Source of the DNA: Cyanophora paradoxa CCMP329
Lineage: Eukaryota; Plantae; Glaucophyta
NCBI GenBank assembly: GCA_004431415.1
Contig: QPMI01000235.1
Location: forward strand, 1-64,000
DNA: 64,000 bases
Reading direction: 5' to 3'
Below the pieces are notes generated by a model. It was not told where the DNA came from and did not search any database. It worked only from the letters and a program-made list of their open reading frames with translations. Numbering within the stretch: the stretch's first letter is position 1; the number at the start of each line of letters is the position of its first letter. The position numbers were made by a program, and so were the translations under genes. Below are positions 38,572-60,213 of the stretch, piece after piece.

Positions 38572-38577
38572 CGCATG
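38572..38577 (+). repeat. Left target-site duplication CGCATG
   Basis: Identical hexamer at 60208-60213, directly outside the other TIR. Confidence 0.92.
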
Positions 38578-39074
38578 TGTTGTATACGCATGGACCTCAC
38601 GACCGGGCAATTCCGCTTCGCTCCATTGCCCCCGATTCCATGCGTTTCCAGTGTATACCTCCACCCCATCTTCAGTTAATTCACCTTGTACGTCTACGAG
38701 CCCCTAATTCCCAGGTCTACCAGACTCGGGCCGGAGTCTTAACAAAGAAATATCTAACGACTATTCAGGACAGAGCTGACAACTAGAATAGGCGAAGAGG
38801 AGCGCTGCCCCCCATGCGCGCGGTCTGTAGAGCAACGTAGCAGAATAGGCTAGGCGATATTAATGTGTGCATTGAGCTAACTGAGGAAACGCGTTCAGCA
38901 TTAACTATAGGCGTGAGGGCGAGTACAGAGAAGCTAAACGAGGAAAGAGCGTTAAGGTAAAGCTAGACGAAATAAATGTGTGCATCGAGCTAGCTGAGGA
39001 AACGCGTTCAGCAAAATCTATAGGCGTGACTTCAGTAAGAAACGGGCCCCTTTTAGCGGTCTGGTGCGGCCTCT
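38578..39074 (+). repeat. Left terminal inverted repeat (497 bp)
   Basis: TGTTGTATACGCATGG...GGTGCGGCCTCT is the reverse complement of 59711-60207. Confidence 0.97.
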
Positions 39075-39080
39075 ATCCAC

Positions 39081-39416
39081 TTAATCTGGCTGTTTTTCCG
39101 AGACTGTAGTCTTCTCCTTTCTGAAACTTGATAGCAAGGACTTTTTTCTTTTCAGTGGCTTCGGGATATTTGGTGGTGGCCAAGACAATCTTCGGCCTTC
39201 AGCATCAAGCCAAGGTACAGGTGAATCAGATCGTGTAAAAGGAGAATTGGACCTAGAAGTCCCGGGTGTGTTGATAGGCGTCACATGAGTTTCTGGGGTG
39301 CGAGAGCCTTCTGTGTCCGATATTTCGAGGTTAATGGTCGTCTCACAGCAACTACAATTCAATTTGCTGGTGACGTTGAGATGGAACATATCCATGAATT
39401 TTCGAAGCAAATCCAT
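39081..39416 (-). CDS. Hypothetical viral protein (CSCC motif, Ser/Pro-rich, basic C-terminus)
   Basis: 111-aa ATG ORF co-directional with its neighbours, ending 6 bp from the TIR. Confidence 0.6.
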   Translation of the reverse strand: MDLLRKFMDMFHLNVTSKLNCSCCETTINLEISDTEGSRTPETHVTPINTPGTSRSNSPFTRSDSPVPWLDAEGRRLSWPPPNIPKPLKRKKSLLSSFRKEKTTVSEKQPD

Positions 39417-39454
39417 CTATTATTGGAAAAATATAAAAAAACAAAGGAATGCAG

Positions 39455-40279
39455 CTATGGAGCCGTATCGCTGCCGAATATAGGAAAATACCTGTTTGTA
39501 CCAACATATTCTGCATATGTATTCTGTCTTGCAATAGCATCGGTTCGTTCAGCATAGAGAATGCACTTGTAGATACCAAACCTGGTGGCTCTCACCAAGA
39601 ACTGGTAGTCTTCAAGACCGAAATTTACACCATGGTAAGCAATGCCGAAATTATCATATGGAGTAATCACAACTGTAATATTTGGAGTTCCACCCTCTAC
39701 TTGACAGACAGCATAAACGTCTGGAGGGATATCAACAACCACCTTGTAGTGGTCACCAATTTCAACCAGAGAATCAACTACTGATGTCTGCTCATTAACA
39801 ACGATTGGAAAGATCTTGATAATATATGGTGCATTCATACTGGGCACGTACGTCCGAATCCGCGTCAGATTATCAATCGGGTTTGGCTGGTCGTTCACGA
39901 AGAGAGGAGCTCCGATCGTTCCCCCAACTCGAAGACCATCACCAATATATGCGCCGCCATTTCGACAGTTAATAGCTCCCGAACGAGATTCGAAAGAATA
40001 AGTCGAAATAGGGGAGCTGTAGGTGTCTGGATCGCCATAATTTGCGCTAAAATTTGCATTTGTGACAAGAAGCTTCGTTGTCTTAACTATACCATTGTTT
40101 TTATCACATCTGAGTTCCTGCAATCTCAGTTTATGGGTTGAACCAAATGTATTCATTGTAGGTTGAACCTCTGTTGATTCAAGACCTTCCACATCATCAA
40201 AAGTAGCATGTTGTAGAACGTGATTTGCAGGAGAAGCAAGCGAAAGCTGAGCTGTTAGGATGCGTTCAATTTCAGCCAT
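39455..40279 (-). CDS. Putative virion fibre-associated protein, paralog A
   Basis: 274 aa; shares GLESTE, ELRxDKNxGxVKTTxLLVTNANF and GGAxIGxGxRVxG with 40303-41157. Confidence 0.65.
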   Translation of the reverse strand: MAEIERILTAQLSLASPANHVLQHATFDDVEGLESTEVQPTMNTFGSTHKLRLQELRCDKNNGIVKTTKLLVTNANFSANYGDPDTYSSPISTYSFESRSGAINCRNGGAYIGDGLRVGGTIGAPLFVNDQPNPIDNLTRIRTYVPSMNAPYIIKIFPIVVNEQTSVVDSLVEIGDHYKVVVDIPPDVYAVCQVEGGTPNITVVITPYDNFGIAYHGVNFGLEDYQFLVRATRFGIYKCILYAERTDAIARQNTYAEYVGTNRYFPIFGSDTAP

Positions 40280-40302
40280 TTTACAATAAAGTGATATATA
40301 TT

Positions 40303-41157
40303 TTACGGAGTAGGATCATCGATCACATCTGGTTCTTGGTAAAATCCTGTTGTGAAGATATCTGCAACATTTACCCCACGAAGTGCTGAAACAGCTGCTA
40401 TATCTGTTCTCAGTCCCATAATCATAGTATTGTAAACTCCAACCTCAGTGACAAACAAATCATAAGTAAATGTCAAATTGTTATATACACAATATCCCCG
40501 ACCGAAATGATTTGATGCTTGAACAAAGAATAGGTAATTGTGACCAAGTTGGTTATTATTTGCTCTGCACATTGAAAGCATTGCTGTGGGAAGAGGAATA
40601 TTTCTTCTCACACGATCAGTTCCTGTAATGGAAACCAATTCTGAATTTTCAAGACTGACAGATGATGCAACATAGAAATGCAGAAAAGGTTGCTGTGCAA
40701 CTGGGGTATAGAACCGAATTCGTTGTGGGTTCTCCACATTTTGTTCAAGAGAATCTGGGACATCATTGTATGCTATCGAAGAAGAGAGTTGACCGGATAC
40801 ACGACATCCACCGCCAATAAAAGCACCGCCTGAACGAATTGTAGCAGCAGCAGTGTTTTTATCAAAATCAAGAGCTTTCAGATCAACACTGTAGGCATCA
40901 GGACCTCCATTAGTAGGCTGGAAGAAGTTAGCATTTGTGACAAGCAGTCGAGTGGTTTTAACTACGCCTGAGTTCTTGTCTGCTCGAAGTTCTTTTACAC
41001 GAATAATCGAATTCTTATCGAAAGCATTCCCGTTAGAATTAGGTCGTTCAGTGGATTCCAGACCGCGAACCTCATCATTTACTTCATGTTGACGAAAATG
41101 CATTGCAGGTGATCCAAGGGAATAGATAGGTAGCTGAATCCGATTATATTCGCCCAT
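40303..41157 (-). CDS. Putative virion fibre-associated protein, paralog B
   Basis: 284 aa; clear paralog of the adjacent ORF; function inferred. Confidence 0.65.
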   Translation of the reverse strand: MGEYNRIQLPIYSLGSPAMHFRQHEVNDEVRGLESTERPNSNGNAFDKNSIIRVKELRADKNSGVVKTTRLLVTNANFFQPTNGGPDAYSVDLKALDFDKNTAAATIRSGGAFIGGGCRVSGQLSSSIAYNDVPDSLEQNVENPQRIRFYTPVAQQPFLHFYVASSVSLENSELVSITGTDRVRRNIPLPTAMLSMCRANNNQLGHNYLFFVQASNHFGRGYCVYNNLTFTYDLFVTEVGVYNTMIMGLRTDIAAVSALRGVNVADIFTTGFYQEPDVIDDPTP

Positions 41158-41197
41158 TGCTTATTTTACTAAGAAGGAAAGAAAAATAAAACTACCA

Positions 41198-41503
41198 TCA
41201 AGGCAAAGTGATTAGATTCGAACCAAGGGATTGGTAAGCAGCTGAAAGAGATTGTATGTTGGCGGTCATAGTTTTAATGTTGTTATCACACTCAATGTAT
41301 TTAGCAACAGGATCACCATAAGCCGATTGCGCAAGGACATTAACCAAGAGGTTTTTATATTCATGAACAACTGGGGACAGTTTGTTCGTTTGCTGAATTG
41401 TTTTTTCGACAGTTTGTAGTGCGGCTACAAGTTTAATAGTATCAAAAGCAAGAGCAACAGGCTCAGAAGTAGTAGAAGATCCACCAAGCGGATAGGTCGC
41501 CAT
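41198..41503 (-). CDS. Hypothetical viral protein (helical/coiled-coil)
   Basis: 101-aa ORF starting 3 bp after the fibre gene stop. Confidence 0.65.
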   Translation of the reverse strand: MATYPLGGSSTTSEPVALAFDTIKLVAALQTVEKTIQQTNKLSPVVHEYKNLLVNVLAQSAYGDPVAKYIECDNNIKTMTANIQSLSAAYQSLGSNLITLP

Positions 41504-41506
41504 TTA

Positions 41507-44500
41507 TTATACAGCGACATTTTTAATTTGATCTATTTGATCTTGTAGACCTTTGCATTTCTTAGATAATTCTTTAACGGCTTCTATGAGAACCGGAATT
41601 AAACCTGTGTATGCAAGGGTTAAATAATTTTCGTGATTTTTACCTACTACTTCTGGTATGACTTTTTCGACATCTTGCGCAATCAAACCTAAGTTAACTT
41701 TCTGTTTTTCATCACCAATCTTTTTATAACTCACACCCTGTAATTTTTCGATTGCTGAAAGCGCACCGGTTATATTTTTAATGTCGGTTTTGTATCTTCT
41801 ATCGCTTCCTTGTGTAAGCCATCCCCAAAAGTAAACGTCACCATCACTATAAAAAGCTTGCATTGTTATATCATTTCCTCCTCTAAAATTGATGATATCG
41901 TAACCATAACCTTTAATGTATGTAGTCGATGATGAACCGAAATAAACTCTCCCGTTACCTTCATCTGATGTTATCCAAGTTCCGGTAGCCCATGTGGTGC
42001 GAGCATCTTTACTAAAAACGTTATCCCAACTTATAAACCCATTTGCTGGTGCTGTTCTCCCTTTTTCTTTCGTCCAACCGATATAGCCTATGTGACATCT
42101 CCCTTTTCTTGCAACAAATCGTACATGGGAGAATGTATCACAATGGAAAGAAGTCCATGTTAAGCCATCATGCCAATCTGAATCGTTATTATTTGAAACG
42201 GCTTGGTAACAATTTACCCTCATAATGTGATGCCACCTCCCATTTCGATAGCCTCCAATATCGAAATATCTGCAATTTGTCCAACACAGGTATTGAACAT
42301 GACATGTTTTCATATTTGCTGGGACTTCAATCTGTGCATAATCTGAACTTGTTTGATCATCATAAATATTGCTATAAAATCCATCAATTGGATTAGTGTA
42401 AGAAGGAACCCAACCTCCTGTCCAAGATCCCACATACTGAAGACTATAACTACCATGTCCACTCCAAGTATCAAAACCTGTAATGTTTCCAATCGAATTG
42501 GTGACATCTGTTAATGATAGATAGGATGTAGGTATATTTGGCTTGCTATACACATTATTCCAATGAATATAACCAGTGTGACCACCATAGCTATGCCCAA
42601 CCCATATTTTCATGAAACTAATACCCATAATGTGAACCCTTCCAATTCTTGCTTGAATTCGAATCCTTACAAATCGGTTTCCTAGGAAGATGGGGACATT
42701 ATTCACACCACTATGATTATCATTTGCAGACCCTGAATAAGGGTGATAATTGTTGACAGTTGTTATGAAAATCGCATTGCCTTGTCGATTAATTCCCCAA
42801 ATCTCGAAAATTCGTGTGTTGCCCCATGGTAAATGAGTTAAAAATGCTGTTCCTGTGTGTAATCCATCGGGTATATTGTATTCTATCCAAGCGGAAGAAG
42901 TTTGGTCATCAACTTCATTATTAAATGCATACCCACCATAATTATAATATGGATCCCATGATGAACCATAACCGAAATTCCAACCTCCAGAATAATTATA
43001 TGGAGAACTGCCTGCAACATATCCATCATTTGAGTGAAGCTTAGGAACAGCATTACCATTTATTTGAAGATTCGTAGTAGCATTAATGGTAGATGCTGTG
43101 AGGGTATTATTGACCCAAAGGTTACCATTGTCATAAGACTTTAAAATTGCTCCATCTGCTGAGTTTCTAAATTCAATTGAGACACCATCACCATTTGGTC
43201 TCCCTCGTATATATGTGCAATCGCCATTACCAAACCAAACTCGCTCAACTGCATCTGTTGATTTTAACCATGTATTTGTAGCCCATGTTGCGGTTTGTGG
43301 AAGGTCTGCGGCTGTTATTAAAGCGGGACGACTGTAAATATTATCCCAAGAAATCATGCCCAACTCATTATCGGTTGCTCTCTGTCTACTCCAACCAAAA
43401 ACCCCCGTAAGATAAATGCGACCTTTTCGCCCTTGAATATATATTTTTGTGTAAAATTCGCAGTTGATGGAGACAAACAAAACAGTATTATGGGTTCCAT
43501 CTTGATATACCGCCTGGATTCCTTGATAAGCATTCACACGTTTTAAGAAATGTTGATATCCATTAGGTGTTTGCCCATAGATATCATAATATCTGCAATT
43601 ACCCCAAGGCATATGCTGAATATAAAACGATTTCATACCTGTGGGGACGTTCCACCTCATAAAGCAAGCACTACAATCAGCGTCATTTTCTGGTGTTGTA
43701 TAAATTCCGCTTTGTCCTGTCCTTGCTATCCATCCTGTATTCCAATTTCCACTGCTTCTATCTGTCGAAATAACATCTAATTGGTCAAAATCGTAACCTT
43801 TCGGTATTGTCGTCCCACCAATTTGTAAAGTGGTAGCATTTACAGTTCCTGTAACAGTCCCACCTGTGAGAGGTAAGTAATTAGCAAGTGCCGCCGCTAA
43901 TTCTGCATCGGTTGCATAACTGCTTAAATCTGCGGTCGTGAGATATCCTTTATAGGTTAGGTAATCATCTGTAACAACTCCTGAAAGGGTTGTATTGTGT
44001 AAGTTTTTCGCCGCCATTCTCTGATTGACTTCTAAGGCACCACCTGATGTCGTTTTAATCCACGCCATCTCACATTTTCCGTGATCATCTGTGGGTTGTC
44101 CCGCAACGGGAAGATAGTTAACAACTTTCTCCCTTGTGAATACTATTTTAGGTCTTGCTCCATCATATGCGCTTTGATCTGTTACATTAATTTGAATAGC
44201 TGCTGAAAAATCCGCTACTTGTCCTGTTTCCCCTGGGTGATAATTCGTAACATAAATACTGGGGAAAGTATCGTTTACTCCTACGTTGAAATCACCACTA
44301 TACACTCCATTTACGATTGGATCCCTGGGTAATCTTACAGCAAGAGTTCCCACCATCGGTGTGCCTTCTTGACCTGTAAACGATCCATTGAGACTAACGT
44401 AATGATCATTCAAATATAACCTGTCAGGTGTATTAATCGATTGGTAAAGTGTGACTCCATTAAAAACATTTCCGATTGCATTCAATTGTGCGAAAACTGG

Positions 44501-46981
44501 CTGTTCGTCTATTTGACCCCAAACGTGCCTGTGTGTCGATGGTGTAAATGTCAGAGGGACGTTATCAATTTCTCCCCAATCGTGCCTATGGGCGCTGGGT
44601 GGAAACGTTAAAGGCACATTATCGAGATCGCCCCAATCGTGATGATGTAATGCTGGTGGAAACGTGAGAGGCACGTTATCGAGATCTAACCAACTGTGCC
44701 TATGGGCGCTGGGTGGAAATACGAGAGGGGTGTTATCGATATCTAACCAATTGTGCCTGTGAGCATCAGGTGGAAACGTTAGAGGGACGTTATCGAGATC
44801 TACCCAATCGTGCCTATGGGCGCTGGGTGGAAATGTTAAAGGCACGTTATCGAGATCACCCCAATCGTGCCGATGGTCTCCCGGAGGGAAATTTTCGGGT
44901 GGATTTGGGATATTTTCCCATCTAAAATAATCTTCTGTTACGACTCTTGAAATATCTTCATTGTGTATATTTTTGGCGCTTGCTCTTTGATTGATTTCTA
45001 ATAAACCTTCACCAACTCCACCATTATAGTTCGTTTTAATCCATGCGACCTCGCATTGTTTATAGTCATCTCGGTTCCCCAAAAGTGCATCTGGTAACAA
45101 TCTCTCTCTGCTGAATATTAATTTGGGTCTTGACGAATCTAAATCACTCACATCAGTAACATTAATTTGGATTGCTGCGTTTTTATCATCATAGTTTGCC
45201 GGATCAGAAGGTAAAGATATTAAACCTCCTGTCATTGGAACGTCATTGGCGTAGTAATTGGTTAAGTATATTCCTGGTTTAGTGTCTTTAATTTCTATGC
45301 CACCACCAAGTGGTAATATAACATTTCTTGTAGGAGGTCTAATATAAAGTTCACCCTCCATAGTGGTGCCTGCATCTATTCCCTGACGATTCACATAATA
45401 ATCGTTTAATTGTAATCTTTCTGGTGTGTCTATATTCTGGTAAAGACTCACACCATTGTTAATATCTCCTAATAATACATTTCCTGTTGATGCAAAAGTA
45501 GGCTGTAAATCGATTTCGTCCCAATTATGCCTATGGTCTTCCGGCGGAAACTCTTCTGGTATCCCATCAATATCGCCCCAATCGTGCCTGTGATCTTCAG
45601 GTGGATATTTCTCAGGTTTACCTAAGATCTCATCCCAGTCATGGTTGTGATCCTCTGGTGGATATCTTGCTGGTTTATTGTTAATCTGCTCCCAATCTGG
45701 AAAGAACTCCCAAATCTCTGGGCGAAAACCATCTGGAAGTAGTTCCTCATGAGGTTCAAAAGGTTGCTCATAATCAACAACTGGTGGTTCGAGACCATCT
45801 GCTAAGTATTCCTCATGAGGTTCATAATTCTGTTCATACTCATACTCCTGTGGATCTAAACCATCAGGTAAATACTCTTCCTCATTGGGGTCGTATTGAT
45901 CATATTCATACTCTTGCGGGTCGAAACCATCAGGTAGATATTCTTCCTCATCTGGGACAAATTGGTATTCTTCAAGCTCTAATATATCGATTTCAGGAGG
46001 TAAATACTGTTCATCTATCTGCTTTTTCGGTTCGAATATAGGTTTATTGCGAACTTGCTCCCAACTAACAATATGTTGACCGAAAGGAACTGTCTCGTCA
46101 GCAACTCGCTCTCGACCTGGTCCATCCGGGGTTGGAGGCTTCGGTAGCCCTGGAAGAGGTGGTATAGGTGGTATAGGGACAATAGGTCCGAAGTAGTAGT
46201 TGAAAATGTTTATTATCTCCGGTTCAGTGATGACCTTTTTTCCATCTTGGTAAATCGACGTGCCGTGAATATTTCGCCACTGCCTGGTGCGGAGCCCAAG
46301 ATCGTAGCTGTCATGCAACGCCGGGAGCAGGTGCCTATCAGCCTCAATCAGGATTGAGCCAAAGGTGCATCCAGGAATATCTAACCTGGTGGCTGGCTCG
46401 GTATCGATTTGATTTACATCAAAACCGTATAAAATATTTGCTTCTCGTGCAGCTGTAAAAAGTAAATCCCAGGGAAACGGCTGGATTTGTGATGCTAGCA
46501 CTGATATTCCTGCAGGCGCAGCGTCGCTGCTTGTCTGCGACTCTTCGCCAAGGAGAATTCGCCCTGTAATGTGAGCCGCAGTTTTGTTTGTGACAGCATT
46601 GGATTCATCAATTAGACGTAGAGCTGATATGTGAATCCCTCGATCGTTTTGAAGTCTAAATATTAATCTACCAGAATCATACTTCGAAACTGTGCCTGAG
46701 GAGGCAATGCGCAGGTGCCGCGGCAACGCCCTGGATCCGATTATTTCAGCAACATAATTCTCAGCTGGACCCAGACAAAATCTCTGTGCAATATCCGGGG
46801 CGCCAACATGTGAGTTGCGCAGAATTAATGCAGCTGGTCGATTAAACTCGGTCCTGTGGATGTCACGATCAGCATTGTAGTCAGCCAAGATGCTTCCGAA
46901 AACGCGAATATTTATATGTCGATCATCCACGAGATCTGGAGCTTTACGAAGTGGCACTGGCTTCTTCAAGATGTAGGACAT
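41507..46981 (-). CDS. Giant tail-fibre-like protein with C-terminal peptidase S74 intramolecular chaperone
   Basis: 1824 aa; SDRRYKTDI...GLIAQDVEKVIPEVV...YTGLIPVLIEAVKEL; ten 19-aa PPxxHxHxW repeats; internal domain duplications. Confidence 0.88.
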   Translation of the reverse strand: MSYILKKPVPLRKAPDLVDDRHINIRVFGSILADYNADRDIHRTEFNRPAALILRNSHVGAPDIAQRFCLGPAENYVAEIIGSRALPRHLRIASSGTVSKYDSGRLIFRLQNDRGIHISALRLIDESNAVTNKTAAHITGRILLGEESQTSSDAAPAGISVLASQIQPFPWDLLFTAAREANILYGFDVNQIDTEPATRLDIPGCTFGSILIEADRHLLPALHDSYDLGLRTRQWRNIHGTSIYQDGKKVITEPEIINIFNYYFGPIVPIPPIPPLPGLPKPPTPDGPGRERVADETVPFGQHIVSWEQVRNKPIFEPKKQIDEQYLPPEIDILELEEYQFVPDEEEYLPDGFDPQEYEYDQYDPNEEEYLPDGLDPQEYEYEQNYEPHEEYLADGLEPPVVDYEQPFEPHEELLPDGFRPEIWEFFPDWEQINNKPARYPPEDHNHDWDEILGKPEKYPPEDHRHDWGDIDGIPEEFPPEDHRHNWDEIDLQPTFASTGNVLLGDINNGVSLYQNIDTPERLQLNDYYVNRQGIDAGTTMEGELYIRPPTRNVILPLGGGIEIKDTKPGIYLTNYYANDVPMTGGLISLPSDPANYDDKNAAIQINVTDVSDLDSSRPKLIFSRERLLPDALLGNRDDYKQCEVAWIKTNYNGGVGEGLLEINQRASAKNIHNEDISRVVTEDYFRWENIPNPPENFPPGDHRHDWGDLDNVPLTFPPSAHRHDWVDLDNVPLTFPPDAHRHNWLDIDNTPLVFPPSAHRHSWLDLDNVPLTFPPALHHHDWGDLDNVPLTFPPSAHRHDWGEIDNVPLTFTPSTHRHVWGQIDEQPVFAQLNAIGNVFNGVTLYQSINTPDRLYLNDHYVSLNGSFTGQEGTPMVGTLAVRLPRDPIVNGVYSGDFNVGVNDTFPSIYVTNYHPGETGQVADFSAAIQINVTDQSAYDGARPKIVFTREKVVNYLPVAGQPTDDHGKCEMAWIKTTSGGALEVNQRMAAKNLHNTTLSGVVTDDYLTYKGYLTTADLSSYATDAELAAALANYLPLTGGTVTGTVNATTLQIGGTTIPKGYDFDQLDVISTDRSSGNWNTGWIARTGQSGIYTTPENDADCSACFMRWNVPTGMKSFYIQHMPWGNCRYYDIYGQTPNGYQHFLKRVNAYQGIQAVYQDGTHNTVLFVSINCEFYTKIYIQGRKGRIYLTGVFGWSRQRATDNELGMISWDNIYSRPALITAADLPQTATWATNTWLKSTDAVERVWFGNGDCTYIRGRPNGDGVSIEFRNSADGAILKSYDNGNLWVNNTLTASTINATTNLQINGNAVPKLHSNDGYVAGSSPYNYSGGWNFGYGSSWDPYYNYGGYAFNNEVDDQTSSAWIEYNIPDGLHTGTAFLTHLPWGNTRIFEIWGINRQGNAIFITTVNNYHPYSGSANDNHSGVNNVPIFLGNRFVRIRIQARIGRVHIMGISFMKIWVGHSYGGHTGYIHWNNVYSKPNIPTSYLSLTDVTNSIGNITGFDTWSGHGSYSLQYVGSWTGGWVPSYTNPIDGFYSNIYDDQTSSDYAQIEVPANMKTCHVQYLCWTNCRYFDIGGYRNGRWHHIMRVNCYQAVSNNNDSDWHDGLTWTSFHCDTFSHVRFVARKGRCHIGYIGWTKEKGRTAPANGFISWDNVFSKDARTTWATGTWITSDEGNGRVYFGSSSTTYIKGYGYDIINFRGGNDITMQAFYSDGDVYFWGWLTQGSDRRYKTDIKNITGALSAIEKLQGVSYKKIGDEKQKVNLGLIAQDVEKVIPEVVGKNHENYLTLAYTGLIPVLIEAVKELSKKCKGLQDQIDQIKNVAV

Positions 46982-47004
46982 TTTTATATAAGCCCCTTTT
47001 AAAA
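46982..47004. promoter_or_regulatory. Putative 23-bp bidirectional promoter core between the fibre and patatin genes
   Basis: TTTTATATAAGCCCCTTTTAAAA lies between two divergent AAAATG starts. Confidence 0.45.
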
Positions 47005-48489
47005 ATGAAGGTCATTCTCTCACTATCAGGTGGAGGTGCTCGTGGAATAGTCATAGCCCGAATTCTACAGCGGATTGAGGCGATTACTGGGAAAGCAATA
47101 CCACAGCTGTTTGATTTCTTTGCAGGCACCTCAACAGGGGCAATAATAGCGGCCGGATTGGCGATCCCATCAACTCCAGGCTCTGTTCTTGCTTACCGAT
47201 ATTCTGCAGGTGATATCTTGAGTCTATATCAAACGAACCTGCCAACAATATTTGCAAATCCAAGATCACTGACAAGCTTGCTCTCAGGAAGCCGCTATGA
47301 TGCAAATCCTCTGGAGTCGGTGCTTACAGACGTTGCCCTGGACTACACAATTGCAGAATCGACAAAAGACGTATTAATTACAGCGTTTGATACAGTTTGG
47401 ATGCAGCCAGTAGTTTTTACAAAGGATGGGCCATATTCAAGCACGCTGATTCGTGATGCAGTTAGAGCATCTTCTGCAGCGCCGACATTCTTTCCACCGA
47501 AGGTTCTAGGGGACAAAAACCTTGTTGACGGGGCAATTGCCTGTTTGAATAATCCCTCAGTTGCAGCGCTAAGCCACGCCAGTAAAATTTACGATGCAGA
47601 AGATCCAATTGTTCTTGTGAGCATTAGCTGTGGTGAGGTCCAAGCCAGTGAGCAATTGACTGCAGGCTTTTCGAATTCGGAGACGTCAGGCTGGGGCGCT
47701 CTGGGCTGGATCCTATCCCTCTCAGGCAGCCCAATCATTTCTATGCTAATGTCAGGTAGCGAGCTGGAATCGCACTTTCAAATGCAGGAACTGCTTCCAG
47801 TTGATGCGGATAGGAATCTAACAAGATACTGGCGTTTAAGTGTTCCGCTGCCAGCTGCAGTCATGAGCAAGCTTGATGATGCCTCTCCATCGAATATTTC
47901 TTATTTGATTTCCACAACTGATTTATGGCTGAAACAAATCGAAATAAATGCTAAAATAAATGCACTCTGCAGTTTTCTATTGGCGAACTACGACCTACTG
48001 AACGATGAGAGACTTATCATATCGTCTACTTTAACAGTTGAGCCTCCATTTGATGTCAACTGGTTTATAATTCCAGATGCGAATATCACAAGCAACGACT
48101 TCGAGGAATTGCACCCACCTTCTCACGTGCGACCCAACTCAACAGGGTTTCAGGGTGGCACTTTACCTAATCCCTGGATCAAAGTCGAGTTTCCCAAGCC
48201 TTTTGAGCTACATCAAATCATTATGTATGGGCCAGCCTTTGCTGCCGGAGTCCTATTTAATTTCAGCATTCTGACCAACTTAGGATATGTCCAAGATGGG
48301 AGGCTTTTTGAAAATACGGTCCTAGCAAATGTGCTTGCTGCAAACCCATCTATGACAGGCTTTGATCTAATGCATAGTGACTCGCATTTGATCACCCCAC
48401 AGGTTTATAACTATGTGCAAATTATAACAAACGAATTTATAAATGTGAATGCGTTCCGGGTTGATTTCCGAGGTCGTTACATTAATTAG
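47005..48489 (+). CDS. Patatin-like phospholipase with C-terminal extension
   Basis: LSLSGGGARG, nucleophile motif AGTSTG, ASSAAPTFFPP and DGA; likely ATG at 47005 (494 aa). Confidence 0.93.
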   Translation: MKVILSLSGGGARGIVIARILQRIEAITGKAIPQLFDFFAGTSTGAIIAAGLAIPSTPGSVLAYRYSAGDILSLYQTNLPTIFANPRSLTSLLSGSRYDANPLESVLTDVALDYTIAESTKDVLITAFDTVWMQPVVFTKDGPYSSTLIRDAVRASSAAPTFFPPKVLGDKNLVDGAIACLNNPSVAALSHASKIYDAEDPIVLVSISCGEVQASEQLTAGFSNSETSGWGALGWILSLSGSPIISMLMSGSELESHFQMQELLPVDADRNLTRYWRLSVPLPAAVMSKLDDASPSNISYLISTTDLWLKQIEINAKINALCSFLLANYDLLNDERLIISSTLTVEPPFDVNWFIIPDANITSNDFEELHPPSHVRPNSTGFQGGTLPNPWIKVEFPKPFELHQIIMYGPAFAAGVLFNFSILTNLGYVQDGRLFENTVLANVLAANPSMTGFDLMHSDSHLITPQVYNYVQIITNEFINVNAFRVDFRGRYIN

Positions 48490-48814
48490 GCGGCGGCATG
48501 AATGCCCAGGAAATCAGAGAGAGTCCAAGACGTGTTGGAATAGTTCTGCCAGATTTATCTTTCTCCCAGAATGGTGCTCCATTACGCCCTCCCAGTCGCC
48601 TCTTAATGTAATTCTCTCTTCGCTGATACCAAGTTGTGTTTTTGGTTGCGAGCTCCTTTTTGATTCCATCAGGACCAAATCGGCGGTAAGCTTGCAGAAA
48701 ACCTATGTTTGTTTGTGTGCTTGGTTTATCTCCAATCGCAACAAGTGATACTTTTTTGTCCCGCATCAATGGCAAGTACTTTTCAATCTGAGCTATGGGC
48801 ATCAACTGCGACAT
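48482..48814 (-). CDS. Hypothetical basic viral protein
   Basis: 110-aa ORF with AAAAATG start; motifs GFLQAY, WxxRRxxYIKR and PTRxxLSLISWA. Confidence 0.7.
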   Translation of the reverse strand: MSQLMPIAQIEKYLPLMRDKKVSLVAIGDKPSTQTNIGFLQAYRRFGPDGIKKELATKNTTWYQRRENYIKRRLGGRNGAPFWEKDKSGRTIPTRLGLSLISWAFMPPPN

Positions 48815-48842
48815 TTTTTGATATATTGTGCCGCTTTTAAAA

Positions 48843-49799
48843 TCAGTGCGGAGCCAAGAAGGCTCCTTGCCTTCGGCTTTCCCTAGTTATGAACTGCAGT
48901 TCACCAGACCAAGGCAGGCCGTTCAGTGATACATCATCACCATCTCTGTCTACAATGCGCAGTCGCAAGGAAGTCAACACAAGACGCTCTTCGATGGGGA
49001 TCCATTCGCCTTCGTTTTCCTGATTAATATACACGAACTTGCCAACATCCTGGCTCATCTGGATTCGAGCAAGCCCGTAGTTGCACATTGTTTTGGCCCC
49101 ACGGCGAAGCTTTGAAGCAAATGGCCGTAGCTCTTCGCAGACAAGGAAGAGGTACTGGTCGCTGTTCATGTCGATTATCTTTGGAAATTCGACAGCATAA
49201 CCAAGTGGCTCACTCCGCATTCTTTCGGTGAAATCGATGCCGTACTCAGGGTGTGCAGGTGTAACTGGAATGCCAGCAACCTCCAGATACCGCTCAGCTG
49301 CAGTTACTGGCCTTTGCCCCCCTTCAAGCACGATAGGAGACAGCAGGAGGGGCTCATTTCGGTTCAGCCCGAGCAGATTTGATAGAGCTTTAAACTGGCA
49401 GGTCAGTGTGCAGGAACGGTTGCAATAGGCAGACATCTTCAGCGTCTCTGGGTCCCGAAACAATTTGAAATAAGCAATCGAGATCCCTTCTAGCCTAATA
49501 TTAAACGATAGGCCAAAGTTGTAAAGATCTGTCTCTCCATAATTTGCAGTTGTAATTATGCCTGGCTCAAAAACCGCCAGATTGTCTGTTCCAATGTAGG
49601 GAAAGGTGATCGAAAGATACTCATCTTTAATGCTGGTGTAAAGGCTGTTTGCAAACTCGCACTGGGTAAGTCGTACAGCAACAGGATTGATTATAGGTTC
49701 ATTTATTTCGAGCACATAGTTTGCCTCTGAATCAATTGGCCTTCTGTCTCTGCTGTCAAAGCTGAGCCTGGCGCAGCGTCGATGCTTGTCTTCGACCAT
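48843..49799 (-). CDS. Minor capsid (penton-like, single jelly roll) protein 1
   Basis: FDSRDR, VRLTQCEFANSLY, YLFL, LARIQM and LRLRIVDRDG..LNGLPWSGELQF match the penton/mCP pattern of large DNA viruses. Confidence 0.8.
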   Translation of the reverse strand: MVEDKHRRCARLSFDSRDRRPIDSEANYVLEINEPIINPVAVRLTQCEFANSLYTSIKDEYLSITFPYIGTDNLAVFEPGIITTANYGETDLYNFGLSFNIRLEGISIAYFKLFRDPETLKMSAYCNRSCTLTCQFKALSNLLGLNRNEPLLLSPIVLEGGQRPVTAAERYLEVAGIPVTPAHPEYGIDFTERMRSEPLGYAVEFPKIIDMNSDQYLFLVCEELRPFASKLRRGAKTMCNYGLARIQMSQDVGKFVYINQENEGEWIPIEERLVLTSLRLRIVDRDGDDVSLNGLPWSGELQFITRESRRQGAFLAPH

Positions 49800-49827
49800 T
49801 TTTATTCTCTAACCGATATTAAAAAAG

Positions 49828-50784
49828 ATGCCTACGGATTACGTCTGCATTGCAAGCCACCTAGCAGATGAGCTTTTATCAACCTCAAAATTCAAGGTTA
49901 GACTGCCTAAAATTTATCAGGATGTAAAAGCTGTGCGCTTGGTATCAGCTGAGATCCCCAACACAATGAGCACAATTGATATACTCGATCCAGCAGAGGA
50001 TTTGGTCTTTGACACCTATATATATTGGTGCAAATATGATCCTGCAAATGAGGGACCAGACCCACCTCAGCCAGGCTTTGGTGCGTGGAATAACATTGCG
50101 ATTCCACCTGGAAATTACGACGTCACCTCGCTTGTGACAAAGATAAACGAAAGGTTGACGGGGACTGGTATCACGTGCACGTATAATTCAGCGGTTAAAT
50201 TAATAGGGTTCACAGCTAGCTTCGAGTTCTTTATTGCTCTGATGTTGCCACCTAACCAGGGTGGGCGGGAAGTCAGAAACTACCAGGCTGTTGCAAGGGC
50301 TCAAAGAACTGCAAAGCTTCTAGGGCTGAGATCAATTCTACCCATCCGGTCTAAGGATTTATCTGTCGATGTTCAATATATAGAGGGCGCTTATGAACCT
50401 GATGTCACTCCCGATGATCATGTGCTCCTACGCATTCCTGAAATTGGTGACCTTGTCAGTATGCCCAATACTTCAATACCTGGCTTCTTTGCCAAAATTA
50501 GCATTCCAAATAGCCTTCGTCCTGGCGAGATAGCATACTATGATTCAACTGAAGCAACTCCTTTGTATAAGTATGTTTATTCAAAGCTGGACCTCTACTC
50601 TGTGACTATTGAGATATACGATTTTATGCAGCGAATCGCTGATTTAAATGGAGCTCCTGTGTCATTTATTCTCGAAATTCGTTATGGTCCTGACGAACCC
50701 AATGGTGATGTTGTCTACGAACTTGCAAAACTTCAGCTCCAGAAAAGGTCAAAGACATATCCTTGGATCAATTCGTCAAACTGA
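49828..50784 (+). CDS. Minor capsid (penton-like) protein 2
   Basis: FKVRLPKIYQDVKAVRLVSAEIPN, IPPGNY, FFAKISIP and IEIYD..DLNGAPVSFILEI; directly upstream of the MCP. Confidence 0.82.
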   Translation: MPTDYVCIASHLADELLSTSKFKVRLPKIYQDVKAVRLVSAEIPNTMSTIDILDPAEDLVFDTYIYWCKYDPANEGPDPPQPGFGAWNNIAIPPGNYDVTSLVTKINERLTGTGITCTYNSAVKLIGFTASFEFFIALMLPPNQGGREVRNYQAVARAQRTAKLLGLRSILPIRSKDLSVDVQYIEGAYEPDVTPDDHVLLRIPEIGDLVSMPNTSIPGFFAKISIPNSLRPGEIAYYDSTEATPLYKYVYSKLDLYSVTIEIYDFMQRIADLNGAPVSFILEIRYGPDEPNGDVVYELAKLQLQKRSKTYPWINSSN

Positions 50785-50825
50785 GTCGCCCAAATTATTT
50801 TCTTTCACTGCAATTATATAAATCG

Positions 50826-52214
50826 ATGGATGTTACTCAGAATTTGCAGCGACTTGGCCTCAAAGAGCTCCTCACGACACCTCAGGAAGCAAAGGACTTC
50901 TTCATGAACAACGAGCTTATGTTGGGTCTAACGAGCCAAACCAAGCCTGTTCGTGTTGTTGTCAACCCAAGCAATGACTATGGAGACTGCTTCGGAAAGA
51001 GGGTTACTTATTTCCTGCCCCGCTACAATTTCCTTCAGGGGCTTGAACTCCAGTTTACCCTGCCCGAGCTGACCGCTTTTACTGGTGACACTGACCTGGT
51101 TCGCACTGGTTATCTGCGCTCTGTTGGTGCTCTTGTAAAGCGAATTGAAATCAAATATGCTTCTTACAGCTACATTGTCCCCGAGGACTGGCTTGTTCAC
51201 AGCGCTCTGATTTTCAATGATGATGCTCAGCTTAAAAAGAAGTACCGGTCTGGTGGCTGGCTCCATGGAACACCCCCGCAGGGTACCAATCGCACTGGAG
51301 GCATTTTCAGTGTAAAAATCCCCTGTCCATGGGAGGGTTCTGTGCTCCCAATTGGTGCTCTATCTGGCGAGGTGTCTGTCGAGGTTTGGTTCCGTGATCG
51401 TGCCCAGGGCTTCGTCGAGACCAGCTATGGTGGTAGGTTTGTAACAGAATATGCCATCGGCGGTGATGCCACTAAAGAAGATGGCCTTGGTAGTGTTGGA
51501 GCTGCCGCTGCATCCCCTGCAAACATCGGCCAGAATATAACTCCCAATGTTCTCAGTGTCACCCCTGCCAATCCCGAGCTTTCTAATCCAAAGATTATTG
51601 CTCATTGCATCAACGTTGATGAGGCCACTTTTGCCCAGGTTATTGAAAAAGTCAAATCGTCTGGAATTGCGATTCCCGCTACGGAGGTCGGCTGGGTTGA
51701 TGCTGATTCAATTACCTATGCAGGTGCTGGTGCGCCAACCAGAATTAATCTGTCTCAAATCAGTGGACTCTGCTACGGTCTATTTGTTAGCATTCGTAAG
51801 CAGACAAATATGAATCAAACTGATGGAAAACACAGTGTCCTCAAAACCGAGGCAAATACTCGTGACATAACTATTTCCTGCGAATTGAATGGCCAGCGGC
51901 TTTATTCTAACGAGCCTGTGCCACTCCTTCAAGGTGCTGAGCTCATTGCTGATGTGTTCAAGTGCTCTAATCTTGATGCTCCTTTGAATAGGTACGTGCT
52001 GACTGGTTTGCCATTTTGCATTAGTGGAGATAAATCGATCCGAAATGCTGCTCAAACTGGTTTCGTAGATCTGACAAACTCGAGCAGCTGCTTCCTGAAT
52101 ATCATGAACCCTGCTGCTTACGATGCAAACAACAAGATTTACGTCCAAATTCGCGCTCTCCTGCACACTGTCCTAATTGTTGATGCTGCGGGTCTTCGTA
52201 AGGTGAACCTCTAG
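50826..52214 (+). CDS. Major capsid protein (double jelly roll)
   Basis: 462 aa from ATG 50826; FGKRVTYFLPR..LQGLELQFTLPEL, LVKRIEIK and LPIGAL..VSVEVWFR; lies between penton and ATPase. Confidence 0.85.
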   Translation: MDVTQNLQRLGLKELLTTPQEAKDFFMNNELMLGLTSQTKPVRVVVNPSNDYGDCFGKRVTYFLPRYNFLQGLELQFTLPELTAFTGDTDLVRTGYLRSVGALVKRIEIKYASYSYIVPEDWLVHSALIFNDDAQLKKKYRSGGWLHGTPPQGTNRTGGIFSVKIPCPWEGSVLPIGALSGEVSVEVWFRDRAQGFVETSYGGRFVTEYAIGGDATKEDGLGSVGAAAASPANIGQNITPNVLSVTPANPELSNPKIIAHCINVDEATFAQVIEKVKSSGIAIPATEVGWVDADSITYAGAGAPTRINLSQISGLCYGLFVSIRKQTNMNQTDGKHSVLKTEANTRDITISCELNGQRLYSNEPVPLLQGAELIADVFKCSNLDAPLNRYVLTGLPFCISGDKSIRNAAQTGFVDLTNSSSCFLNIMNPAAYDANNKIYVQIRALLHTVLIVDAAGLRKVNL

Positions 52215-52265
52215 TCGAAGTGTCGCGGTTGTGTTCGCCTGCGAATATCAGTACTTAATTTTTTG

Positions 52266-53006
52266 ATGGATGAGTCTCAAGAACTCGCAAAGTTCCAGCC
52301 GGGAGAAATGAGGGTTCCTTTTAAGGCCCTGTTTATTTCAAAGTCCAATAGCGGCAAGTCTTTCTACTGCACCAAGCATCTGCTGCGGCTGCTCTATCCA
52401 AAGATCAACCGAGTCGTCGTTTTCACTGCCACCAAATTCAATGGTGAATACTCTGCAATAACGAAAGAGCTTTACGATGATTTTCAACCCGCCATAGTTG
52501 CAGAAATCATTGATTCACAGCGAAATTTGATTGAAAACAAAAAGAAAGCGCCGCAGATATTGCTTGTATTGGACGATCTAGTTGCTGCCTCTGAAACTGT
52601 TGATCTGCGAAATAGCAAGGCTGTAAATCGACTTTTTACACAAGGTCGTCATTTTAATATCAGTACGATTCTTATGACCCAAAAGCTTACAGCATTGAGT
52701 CAATCTATAAGATCGAACTCCGACTATTGTTTTTTCTTCAGTTACTCTAATCATACTGAACTCGAGGCAATTTATAGAGAGTTTAGTCATCTCCCGAAAG
52801 ACGAATTTATTGCTTTGTTCGAAACCTGGGCGCATGATTATCAGTGCCTAGTCCTTGATGGGACCAAGTACGATACGGCCTGGTACGTTGATAAAGCTGT
52901 TGAAGATAAGAGTTTTCGCTTTACAAAATGGCTTAAGAATGAAGAAGAGCCTAAGAAAGAATCGCCTGTTATCTATAAAAAGAGGCGTTTTAAAATCTTA
53001 TCTTAA
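52266..53006 (+). CDS. A32-like FtsK/HerA DNA packaging ATPase
   Basis: Walker A SKSNSGKS, Walker B LLVLDD, Arg finger GRHFNIS, MTQ and IRSNSDY. Confidence 0.92.
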   Translation: MDESQELAKFQPGEMRVPFKALFISKSNSGKSFYCTKHLLRLLYPKINRVVVFTATKFNGEYSAITKELYDDFQPAIVAEIIDSQRNLIENKKKAPQILLVLDDLVAASETVDLRNSKAVNRLFTQGRHFNISTILMTQKLTALSQSIRSNSDYCFFFSYSNHTELEAIYREFSHLPKDEFIALFETWAHDYQCLVLDGTKYDTAWYVDKAVEDKSFRFTKWLKNEEEPKKESPVIYKKRRFKILS

Positions 53007-53015
53007 GAACAGAAG

Positions 53016-53645
53016 ATGGCAAGAGGCATTCCTAAGAAGGGATATCGTGAAAGACGCAAGGTCAATGTTGTTGAACCACTAGTCGAAAGTGGTGCAACAG
53101 AGGGCGCAGCTGTAGCTAATCCTAGCGGGGAGCTCGCAAGTGACCCCAAACTAAACGCACCCGTTGCTAAAACAATTGCCTCCGCAGCAGCTAACGCCAG
53201 TGCAATTGACGACCGACAAAGCCAGGTCAAAATTGTAAACGAAATGCAGTCTGATATTGATGATGATGCTGCTAGAATTTTACAAGCGATGGCGTCTGAA
53301 GCGCGGTATTCAGGGCCTAAAATCAAGACAGCAACGGTGTCAAAAAGTCAGATTGACGAGTTGGCTGCCAAATTGCGTGATCTAGAAGCGAGGTCGGCTA
53401 ATATCGAATCATATGTAAAAGATAAGCAAGAAAGAGCTAAGATCCGCGAGATGTTGCGAAGCGAAATGTTTAAGCACAGATCTATGGATGTACCAGATTT
53501 GCGCTATTTGAAAAATGAAAAAGCTAAAGCCGAGCAATCGCTTGACTCTGCCGAAGTAAAACCAGCAACTCCAAATGTTTTTGAACCCAATTCTACGAGC
53601 TCGCAGATGAAGAATGCAATGGGTGGGAGAAGGATACGACTGTGA
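53016..53645 (+). CDS. Hypothetical protein with basic termini and coiled coil (possible core protein)
   Basis: 209 aa; starts MARGIPKKGYRERRK; 9 bp after the ATPase. Confidence 0.65.
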   Translation: MARGIPKKGYRERRKVNVVEPLVESGATEGAAVANPSGELASDPKLNAPVAKTIASAAANASAIDDRQSQVKIVNEMQSDIDDDAARILQAMASEARYSGPKIKTATVSKSQIDELAAKLRDLEARSANIESYVKDKQERAKIREMLRSEMFKHRSMDVPDLRYLKNEKAKAEQSLDSAEVKPATPNVFEPNSTSSQMKNAMGGRRIRL

Positions 53646-54198
53646 CACATCGATCAACAGGATTTGCATCCACACACCTGGAACATCCACATTTGTGCTT
53701 CATTTCATCCATTTTCGCTAATACCCAGACATGCCTTCCATTTTTCATGATTTTCTTTAGATTTGGCACCCAATACCACACGATAAATCTGAACTTCATC
53801 CACGGCGTAGATGGATTGCACTGGTTACAGTTCCAAACTACTTTTTCACTGTATTGCAACAGCTTTTGCTGAGGTATCCAACTCGTAAATTCATTGCACT
53901 TCGCACACTTCAAACGTGCTTCTCGGACAATTGAAATCTTATCAAAGCATCCGTATTCCTGCTTCTCTCTCGTTTCCCCTGCATATGAGGTTATAATCTT
54001 GTCTAACTGCTTTTCAAAACATTCGTGACACATTGCTTCATTTTCACAGACATCATTGCAATCTATGCAAAGAATAGAGCGAACACGTCTGCGCACCTCA
54101 CAAACTTCCTCATCACTAGACTCTGTGGCCTCTCTATAATCTGAAGTGCTGAAGAGACCTCTTGGAGCAAGTGTGCCGAAAAAGTTGTGTCCTCCCAT
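53593..54198 (-). CDS. Cys-rich, putative zinc-binding protein
   Basis: CxxC pairs CIDC, CHEC, CAKC, CNQC and CSRC. Confidence 0.6.
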   Translation of the reverse strand: MGGHNFFGTLAPRGLFSTSDYREATESSDEEVCEVRRRVRSILCIDCNDVCENEAMCHECFEKQLDKIITSYAGETREKQEYGCFDKISIVREARLKCAKCNEFTSWIPQQKLLQYSEKVVWNCNQCNPSTPWMKFRFIVWYWVPNLKKIMKNGRHVWVLAKMDEMKHKCGCSRCVDANPVDRCVTVVSFSHPLHSSSASS

Positions 54199-54257
54199 TG
54201 TCTTTTACTTTTTACAATATCGGATTGATATTTCTTTAAGACTTGCAAACGCATCGC

Positions 54258-54512
54258 CTAATCGAAATCAGGCAAATCTGTAAGATCTTCTACAGTTGGT
54301 TTCCTCTCTCGCTCTACATATTCAAGCATCCCGTTTACTGTTGCCAGATCATTCGATTGACAAATTTCAAAAGCACGCTGCAATTGCCTTTTATCGTACT
54401 CCCGCAGATGTTCCCAAGATAATAACCATTCGGCGTATTTCGGATCGGTTAAAACTACTTTCAGATGAGTTTCGCCACGGTACTTTCCAAATCGAATTGT
54501 TCCTGCGACCAT
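54258..54512 (-). CDS. Small FGKYxG-motif protein (DUF3820 / exonuclease X C-terminal-like)
   Basis: MVAGTIRFGKYRGET...DPKYAEWL; likely ATG at 54512. Confidence 0.7.
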   Translation of the reverse strand: MVAGTIRFGKYRGETHLKVVLTDPKYAEWLLSWEHLREYDKRQLQRAFEICQSNDLATVNGMLEYVERERKPTVEDLTDLPDFD

Positions 54513-54622
54513 TATTTGAATTATATCTCGGATTTTATGTTCGGAATTTAACGCAACACAAACCTGCGATTTATGCCATAAAAAGATTTCGCACCTTGTT
54601 TGTGACGAGAAAACACGCAAAA

Positions 54623-54898
54623 ATGGATGCTGAATCATCACCTAAACAGCGAGGTCGCAAACCAATTGTTGTCACCCCTGAAATTGCTGCGGCACGAAAA
54701 GCAAAGCGTGCTGAAAATCATCGCCGTCGTTACAGTGAAGATCCGGAATTTCGCCGACGACACATTGAAGCCAGTTCGAAATATCAGCAGAACAACAGCG
54801 AGAATCATTTAGAGGCCAATCGCCGGTATCGCAAACGCATCTACGATAAGCTAGCTCTTTTGGAATCTCTTCAAAATCAACTTGTTATAGTTCTTTGA
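54623..54898 (+). CDS. Small basic putative DNA-binding protein
   Basis: 91 aa from AAAATG at 54623; KQRGRKP AT-hook-like motif followed by an Arg-rich helix. Confidence 0.65.
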   Translation: MDAESSPKQRGRKPIVVTPEIAAARKAKRAENHRRRYSEDPEFRRRHIEASSKYQQNNSENHLEANRRYRKRIYDKLALLESLQNQLVIVL

Positions 54899-56021
54899 TT
54901 GCCCTTCTGGTTTTTGTACTCTCTAATATTCCACCAGGGTTTAACTTGACAGTTCCAGCTGTCGCAAGTTGCTTTTGAAGGCGAAGCAGCTTCTTATTTT
55001 TTTCTATATCTGCTCGATCTAAGTTCTCTCGCATTAGATTAAGCTCCTTCTTTCGTCGTTGCATAGCTTTCTGTGATGCTCCTCCCGCACGACGTTCCTC
55101 TGAATCTGCAGCTACTTTCATTAGTCGCTGGTAGGTCACCGCTTTGCCGTAGCCCGAAAGCGTAAATTTGAGCAGTGGTCCAAAACCACCTATCTCCATA
55201 ATCGTATAGATTTCTTTTGAATACGTAGGCTTTGAAGACTTGTCGAAACGTTTTCTCTCTAGCTGTACCCGCACGCGATCGCCTACTTTAAATTCGACCT
55301 CCTTCAGGTAGTGTTGCTGCTCGTAGATCTCTCGCTGATAATCATTGCGAGCGATTGTCTCCTTCGGATTCTCTGCTGCAGCGTTTGGCGATGTACCGAT
55401 CGACCTATGCTCTGACGAATTATAATTGCGCACAAATGCGGGCAGCTTATCGATGTATCTATCCGTGTCATACGCCTCCATATACCGTGCAATAATTCGC
55501 TTCAAAGTACCATTGAACCGCTCTACTTTTCCATTTGCTTGGGGCCGATGCGCTTCCACAGCATTATGTTTAATTCCCTCAACTTCTAACAGACTAGTAG
55601 CTGAAGCTTTAAACTCCTGATCTGTCTGAATAATATCCGGCTTGGCTGGAAAACTCTCTATTAGTTTCCGTAGAGTTGAAAGGAGTGTCCCTTCGCTCTT
55701 GTTCTTCATCGGAATGCTGTAGGCTTTCCTAGTCACTACGTCCACTGCGTTCATAATAAAGTGAATGCCGCGGTTGGTTCTGGCGTACGGAGTCACGTCG
55801 ATTAGGTCGACCTCGTAGTATTTCTCTGCTTTGTCGTATGTTATACTTGTGAATGGTTTCTCTTTTTGCGGTCTCGCAAATCTTTGCGCTGTCGATAATT
55901 TCTCCAGCACTGCTCTAACCCTGGCAACTGGTATTTTCAACTTCTTTGCAATACGTGTGGCTGACTGAAGCCCTGTTTCTGGATCATAGTATGCCTCCTG
56001 AATTTTGGCCGATGTACTCAT
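54885..56021 (-). CDS. Retroviral-like (rve, DDE) integrase of Polinton type
   Basis: YYDP N-terminus, EVDLID, VDVVTRKA, QTDQEF, VERFNGTLK, YNSSEHRSIGTSP and FKVGDRVRV; alternative ATG at 56045. Confidence 0.95.
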   Translation of the reverse strand: MSTSAKIQEAYYDPETGLQSATRIAKKLKIPVARVRAVLEKLSTAQRFARPQKEKPFTSITYDKAEKYYEVDLIDVTPYARTNRGIHFIMNAVDVVTRKAYSIPMKNKSEGTLLSTLRKLIESFPAKPDIIQTDQEFKASATSLLEVEGIKHNAVEAHRPQANGKVERFNGTLKRIIARYMEAYDTDRYIDKLPAFVRNYNSSEHRSIGTSPNAAAENPKETIARNDYQREIYEQQHYLKEVEFKVGDRVRVQLERKRFDKSSKPTYSKEIYTIMEIGGFGPLLKFTLSGYGKAVTYQRLMKVAADSEERRAGGASQKAMQRRKKELNLMRENLDRADIEKNKKLLRLQKQLATAGTVKLNPGGILESTKTRRAIKEL

Positions 56022-59310: not shown

Positions 59311-59510
59311 TATGAATAGGTCTCTACAATATTGGCTGACCGAAAACTTTTTGCGATTTAATCGCGCACAATCTCTGATTGCTAGTATGAGTGCGAGAAA
59401 CCTTTAAGCCATGCAACTAACTGCAAGACTTGTCTCCGGCTCGGTCTCCGGGATCCGGCTTGGATCCGGCTTGAGCTTGGCAGCCGCTCGTTCTCGGGCT
59501 AGCAATCCGC

Positions 59511-59680
59511 ACACTATCAGCGTACTATCAGCGCACTATCAGCGCACTATCAGCGCCAATCTTTTGTGTGTCACGTATCTCGCCGTTTTCTCGCCACGTC
59601 ACAGCGTCACGTCATGGCGTCCGCAAAGTTTTCTTAGGAACTTGACCCTCCGAATTAAAACAATTAAAACAATTAAAACA
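59511..59680. promoter_or_regulatory. Subterminal repeat-rich region upstream of pPolB
   Basis: ACTATCAGCG x4, AATTAAAAC x3 and clustered GTCACGT/ACGTCA motifs. Confidence 0.5.
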
Positions 59681-59710
59681 AAAGAAAGGTAAAGTCATCG
59701 ACACATCTCC

Positions 59711-60207: not shown

Positions 60208-60213
60208 CGCATG
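60208..60213 (+). repeat. Right target-site duplication CGCATG
   Basis: Matches 38572-38577. Confidence 0.92.

Follow-up and report, generated by a model that had tools for sequence, protein, structure and literature searches.

A modular S74-terminated fibre-like protein of an integrated polinton-like virus in Cyanophora paradoxa DNA

Results

The integrated element and its genes

The window, by which we mean the whole 64,000-nucleotide stretch of Cyanophora paradoxa CCMP329 DNA analysed here, carries a 21,630-bp element whose GC content is 44%, as against 69-70% in the flanking host sequence. The element and its recognisable genes are arranged as follows.

38572..38577: left target-site duplication, 6 bp, CGCATG
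38578..60207: integrated polinton-like virus, 21,630 bp, 44% GC, ends TG...CA
38578..39074: left terminal inverted repeat, 497 bp, 100% complementary to the right copy
41507..46981, minus strand: modular fibre-like gene, 1824 aa, no internal stop
47005..48489, plus strand: patatin-like phospholipase with GxSxG and DGA motifs (Pfam)
48843..49799, minus strand: 318-aa gene, candidate minor capsid (penton) protein
49828..50784, plus strand: 318-aa gene, second candidate minor capsid (penton) protein
50826..52214, plus strand: major capsid protein, 462 aa, 64% identical to a Cyanophora paradoxa protein
52266..53006, plus strand: A32-like packaging ATPase (Pox_A32, E=2.5e-9)
54885..56045, minus strand: rve integrase with D, D and E motifs (Pfam)
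55984..59310, minus strand: protein-primed B-family DNA polymerase (pPolB; DNA_pol_B_2, E=2e-58)
59711..60207: right terminal inverted repeat, 497 bp
60208..60213: right target-site duplication, 6 bp, CGCATG

Target-site duplications of 6 bp are the rule in polintons. This duplication, the terminal inverted repeats and the size of the element, which falls within the 15-30 kb range of polinton-like viruses (PMC10120064), match the features by which polintons and polinton-like viruses are recognised. As pPolB, the rve integrase, the A32 ATPase and the major capsid protein are all encoded in addition, the termini and the set of replication and capsid genes together identify the element as an integrated polinton-like virus. 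An earlier note on this DNA had spoken of a small eukaryotic virus; the sequence is an element integrated in host DNA of 69-70% GC and not a free genome. The capsid, ATPase, integrase and polymerase genes are all intact, catalytic motifs are present in the polymerase, integrase, ATPase and patatin lipase, and coding density reaches 92% (17 chosen ORFs); this copy is intact and looks recently inserted. No gene for an adenovirus-type maturation protease, a feature of the classical Polinton/Maverick elements, was found among the 16 element ORFs scanned against Pfam. We know of no particle of this element.

The capsid protein has a single relative in the protein database, the Cyanophora paradoxa protein listed above, which is identified as a major capsid protein by HHpred (98.47%) in Table S2 of Bellas et al. 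2023 (PMC10120064), a study giving 366 such hits for the Cyanophora paradoxa genome. No loci for the capsid protein or the ATPase were found in viral or metagenome contigs. The two 318-aa genes, which we take to be candidate pentons from a motif and from their position, gave no match in Pfam or in further searches; they are divergently transcribed (48843-50784), with no significant BLASTP similarity between them. The patatin gene lies head-to-head with the fibre gene, at a distance of 23 bp, and the additional ~160 aa at the C-terminus of its product (47995-48489, plus strand) found no domain match. This extension may be a discoidin domain, because patatin-discoidin fusions are known from glaucophyte and rhizarian elements (PMC12220804). 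Just downstream of the fibre gene sit two tandem paralogues (39455-40279 and 40303-41157, minus strand) of 274 and 284 aa, 35% identical to each other (96 shared residues), with no match in Pfam, PHROG or NCBIfam and no similarity to the fibre N-terminus or to its duplicated domains D1 and D2 described below; they are possibly further virion proteins.

Several short repeats accompany the element. Within each terminal inverted repeat, 68 nt are repeated directly (38849-39029 and 59756-59936; 113-nt spacing, 88% identical), 11-nt tandem repeats occur inside the right end (59505-59559), and short AT-rich direct repeats of 25-26 nt, in several copies, are found in the host sequence some 450 bp to the left of the element (38022-38142). 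A Pfam scan of 16 host ORFs returned two F-box matches only, both sub-threshold. The host ORF at 61384-61881 (plus strand), which had no Pfam match, includes a stretch that we take to resemble the N-terminal tail of histone H3, and is perhaps a degenerate or intron-split H3 gene.

Layout of the fibre-like protein

The fibre-like gene, described in the earlier note as an open frame of 1824 codons filling 25% of the genome, is indeed uninterrupted and accounts for 25.3% of the length of the element. From N- to C-terminus, the encoded protein is organised as follows.

46187..46981, minus strand: N-terminal region, residues 1-265
46112-46189, minus strand: Pro-rich hinge, preceding the acidic repeats
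45707..46054, minus strand: five acidic 22-aa EEYLPDG-type repeats, residues ~318-427, 34% Asp+Glu
45512..45694, minus strand: HxH block 1, three 19-aa repeats
44915..45514, minus strand: duplicated domain D1, residues 490-689
44507..44920, minus strand: HxH block 2, seven 19-aa repeats
43949..44512, minus strand: duplicated domain D2, residues 824-1011, 47% identical to D1
43298..43789, minus strand: repeat domain A, residues ~1065-1228, putative beta-sandwich by homology to C
43097..43288, minus strand: segment 1232-1295, 39% identical to 1663-1723
42536..43024, minus strand: repeat domain B, residues ~1320-1482, putative beta-sandwich by homology to C
41996..42490, minus strand: repeat domain C, residues ~1498-1662, predicted seven-strand beta-sandwich with weak galactose-binding-like/CBM likeness
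41813..41995, minus strand: Gly- and aromatic-rich segment before the chaperone, residues 1663-1723
41510..41806, minus strand: Peptidase_S74 intramolecular chaperone, Ser1726/Lys1731, C-terminal helix

The two HxH blocks, the acidic repeats and the domain duplicated behind each block had all been noticed before and stood up to analysis, but the first reading had missed the composition of the C-terminal 40%, namely three domains of ~155 aa (A-C) and a duplicated segment of ~60 aa. Peptidase_S74 was the sole domain found in a Pfam scan of the whole protein. Around residues ~200-250 (window positions 46082-46400), the matches were weak and to phages only (phrog_36881, E=0.0012; cyanophage proteins, E about 1e-3 to 5e-3), which suggests one more phage-fibre segment near the N-terminus. 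AlphaFold2 run on the single sequence of residues 1028-1824 was uninformative (mean pLDDT 32.3). Hydropathy indicated neither a signal peptide nor a membrane helix (19-aa mean: maximum 1.28; N-terminus 0.28), and on this ground we reject a secreted or membrane adhesin.

The C-terminal chaperone

The autocleaving chaperone signature reported at the C-terminus was recovered as Peptidase_S74 (PF13884) at residues 1726-1779, with E=1.7e-16 and 60.6 bits against a cut-off of 22; its SDRRYK motif begins at window position 41806 and places Lys1731 five residues after Ser1726. The last 130 aa of the fibre match 1192 of 50,697 phage records, those named among the matches listed being tail fibre or baseplate proteins, and the C-terminus also matches the long tail fibre chaperone in PDB 6f45 (E=2.5e-4). 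A serine followed by a lysine at +5 where the domain begins, and then a C-terminal helix, are likewise found in the chaperones of T5 pb1 and of the K1F endosialidase. In T5 pb1, for which the pair is given as Ser1264/Lys1269, cleavage at this point unmasks the receptor-binding tip, and by this analogy the fibre chaperone is predicted to cut itself off. Two differences are apparent: the chaperone is 99 aa long here as against 133 in the comparison with T5 pb1 and K1F, and the arginine described as a folding sensor in T5 pb1 (Arg1250, 14 residues before the catalytic serine) is lacking at the same spacing, position -14 from Ser1726 being Ser1712 in a count of spacing that involves no structure. 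Upstream of the chaperone there is no sequence similarity to T5 pb1 or K1F.

The HxH repeats

Ten [P/T]PxxHxHxW motifs follow each other at 19-aa spacing, at residues 441, 460 and 479 in the first block and 699-813 in the second; nine read PPxxHxHxW and the last TPSTHRHVW. Among 2000 shuffles of the fibre protein, 1999 contained no such motif and one contained a single copy. A search with residues 1-994 retrieved 1555 proteins at E<=0.001, and in the 150 matches listed the best-scoring stretch lay at or across the HxH blocks. The strict motif occurred at least three times in 70 of 155 fetched proteins. Block 2 matched 423 of the 50,697 phage records, mainly from phages of Mycobacterium (175) and Streptomyces (172), and all 15 matches listed were tail or minor tail proteins; it also matched PDB 9d93, 'tail collar fibers, gp4' (E=2.3e-7). 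The W-x8-FPPxxHxH repeat thus shares both period and motif with gp4 and with the minor tail proteins of these phages, and identity to phage tail repeats was 50-54% among the matches listed. Unlike in phage tail or collar fibres, the repeats here alternate with orphan domains of ~190 aa, in a eukaryotic virus. An alignment of the fibre with 26 of the 150 matches (27 rows), hand-picked for short length and contiguous repeats, a choice that favours conservation, showed four invariant histidines and seven more that are at least 90% conserved.

The Pfam search proposed in the earlier note was thus borne out for Peptidase_S74, but not for the phage tail repeat (PTR, PF12789), which had no match at E<=5 in either HxH block. 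Among the best 40 matches and one other (n=41), PF12789 is present in 21 and S74 in 5, while 13 lack any Pfam family. The solved fibres of pyocin and T4 contain buried iron sites in which HxH pairs supply six histidines and to which a part in folding or stiffness is ascribed (PMC6116203), and the repeats of the present fibre would, by analogy, also bind metal. In the literature consulted we came across no record of metal binding by the 19-aa repeat type itself, and the available text of PMC13252515 contains nothing on 19-aa HxH repeats.

Two orphan domain families

Behind each HxH block comes a single copy of a domain of ~190 aa, and these copies, D1 and D2, are identical at 85 of 180 aligned residues (47%; score 368, shuffle maximum 63). 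Domains A, B and C are 32-38% identical in pairwise comparisons (scores 159-244, shuffle maxima 54-66), and the second copy of the ~60-aa segment, 39% identical to the first (1232-1295 and 1663-1723), runs into the S74 domain. No relatives of D1/D2 or A-C were found in viral contigs, metagenome contigs, PDB sequences or phages by searches that were word-limited, so that absence is not proof, and none of residues 830-1720 in a database search for shorter proteins. A search among proteins of near-equal length gave four matches, each covering 3-5% of the query, and the 155 fetched proteins contained no relative of D1/D2 or A-C except for one weak row for region A.

When the alignment of its three copies was used as input, domain C was predicted to fold into a seven-strand beta-sandwich (core pLDDT 60-83, pTM 0.55), a fold in which we have moderate confidence. 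Structure searches with this model returned many carbohydrate-binding module, discoidin and Eph-type rows. Foldseek found none at E<=0.001 (E>=0.0085), and the best structural match, with Z 7.4, was the prophage protein YomS, which is not a lectin; CBM29 followed at Z 6.9 (rmsd 3.6, 108 aligned), no match reaching 8, a value below which, according to the search tool, a match may reflect a common arrangement only. In the ESM Atlas the best value was 0.87 for domain C, and D2 scored 0.95 to bacterial clusters with a recognition value below threshold, which makes it a lead only. Given these CBM-type structural matches, albeit weak, a sugar-binding role of A-C is likely.

Copies of the fibre gene in host DNA

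At least 20 sequencing runs of one organism contain 43-51% of the sampled words of the fibre gene. Three of the four runs that were mapped yielded 1230-1986 short contigs per run, at 80-100% identity and along the whole gene, some of them with frameshifting indels, which points to many diverged fibre-gene copies in the DNA of this organism. Certain contigs join homologous positions of the gene. One join, seen in three runs, leads from 42076 to 42554 and skips 477 nt, with 69 letters on its short side, the letters between the joined positions not being known; a second skips 1323 nt between 42041 and 43365, with 20 letters on its short side, and a third jumps 774 nt backwards from 45520 to 44747. 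All three distances are divisible by three; four others that were checked are not. Such contigs may be variants in module number, or may result from cross-mapping between paralogous repeats at 80% stringency. In run X1, one contig skips 3378 nt (48879-52258; 30 letters on the short side), including both penton candidates and the capsid gene, and may represent another host copy from which the capsid gene has been deleted. Among the putative RNA runs, whose RNA nature is guessed, one lacked fibre pieces and three had low-depth pieces of the polymerase, terminal repeat and flank only.

Discussion

A probable attachment fibre

We interpret the 1824-aa protein as a homotrimeric attachment fibre of the integrated polinton-like virus, a reading to which we give a probability of roughly 0.7. 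The phage-style fibre with an S74 chaperone put forward in the earlier note is supported by the matches in Pfam, in phage records and to PDB 6f45 and 9d93; the trimer, its position at the vertices and an extracellular virion would be expected from related proteins. Following the solved phage fibres, the S74 chaperone would register the three chains from the C-terminus and, 99 residues or about 11 kDa in size, would be released by self-cleavage at Gly1725-Ser1726, unmasking the tip. In each HxH repeat, two histidines per chain would join in the octahedral coordination of a single Fe or Zn ion at the three-fold axis, and up to ten such sites per trimer would make for a stiffer shaft. To judge from other polinton-like viruses, the fibre would sit on the pentons, its N-terminus (1-265) docking on the capsid, and the neighbouring patatin lipase would help membrane entry after binding. 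Domains A-C near the tip would probably bind sugars of the host surface.

The fibre might instead grip a carrier and not the algal surface, the virion entering by hitchhiking on bacteria (whether prey or neighbours) or on a giant virus acting as helper. T4-gp37-like tail proteins of the virophage DSLV2 do bind Synechococcus cells and LPS (PMC12724248), and the recognisable parts of the present protein are of phage type. The likeness to phages, however, lies in the shaft and the chaperone, no phage relative of the putative binding domains having turned up in the searches run, and Gezel-14T has been inferred to enter independently, so that we regard a carrier as an unlikely target. Somewhat less probable still is that the element spreads mainly by copying within the host genome, with a fibre that is no longer present on particles or that works uncleaved. 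The many diverged copies in runs of one organism, some with frameshifting indels, and the missing folding-sensor arginine of pb1 would fit such a history. They are opposed by a 5.5-kb frame without interruption, terminal repeats that agree perfectly over 497 bp, the 92% coding density and intact catalytic motifs, and by the reactivation of integrated polinton-like viruses of other algae by giant viruses (bioRxiv 2025.10.09.676808). That the HxH shaft, beyond stiffening the trimer, serves as iron bait for a host iron-uptake receptor, a 'Trojan horse' put forward for marine phages (PMC11705849) and conceivable with ten potential sites per trimer, is very improbable, since the iron of solved fibres is buried and ascribed to folding or stiffness (PMC6116203) and the 19-aa repeat of the shaft occurs widely among the tail proteins of phages of Streptomyces and Mycobacterium.

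Comparison with known polinton-like virus fibres

An attachment fibre of this kind has published precedents, and the surprise implied by the earlier note at an S74 fibre in such a virus is not supported (PMC12220804; bioRxiv 10.1101/2022.07.28.501842). According to Bulzu et al. 2025 (PMC12220804), PF13884 is ubiquitous in polinton-like viruses of most eukaryotic groups, where it often forms the end of modular proteins that can reach 3.9k aa; these authors also infer independent host recognition from S74 fibres. The distribution of homologues that the earlier note had suggested checking extends to phages, by the record counts given above, and, as published, to polinton-like viruses. For glaucophyte elements (n=156), a count of the columns in that study gives 37 with PF13884, 85 with rve, 49 with pPolB, 89 with lipases and none with proteases, a set that the gene content of the present element fits (PMC12220804). 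The protein resembles the S74 fibres of Bulzu et al. in being long and modular, with a single C-terminal PF13884, repeated putative sugar-binding domains and a lipase in the same element, and departs from them in that laminin G3, collagen, avian adenovirus fibre, PTR and BppL_N modules do not score. Its architecture is absent from the text of their Fig. S6, where the sole Cyanophora entry is PTR-PTR-H_lectin (PMC12220804).

Purified particles of Gezel-14T/PgVV contain a phage-like fibre and a lipase (bioRxiv 10.1101/2022.07.28.501842). The fibre, Ltf (PGVV14) of Gezel-14T / PgVV-14T, is likewise the longest ORF, repetitive and phage-fibre-like, but, compared by description only, it differs in having T4 gp36-like repeats, and the main text of that preprint nowhere mentions 'S74'. 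A tail fibre gene is also common to Tetraselmis elements (bioRxiv 2025.10.09.676808), and the word 'fiber' is absent from the main text of Bellas et al. (PMC10120064). Within the literature searched, subscription papers being outside its scope, we found no HxH-repeat fibre in a polinton-like virus. An S74-ended modular fibre in polinton-like viruses is therefore already known, and only the mix of building blocks is new.

More tentatively, and with doubts that outweigh our confidence, the protein can be pictured as a metal-stapled fibre that a eukaryotic virus has assembled from a 19-aa HxH repeat of phages together with domains of two orphan families. One of these families would be a new variant of a sugar-binding fold, and the many host copies would shuffle module number so that one algal genome would hold a library of fibre specificities.

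How polinton-like viruses find their cells has so far been inferred and not shown, and we found in the literature no receptor-binding experiment in the host lineage, which the capsid relative and the gene content mark as probably glaucophyte. With an intact copy whose tip domains are small enough for expression, receptor binding could be tested directly in this algal lineage. Should module number vary among the host copies, they would reveal how attachment proteins of endogenous viruses become diverse.
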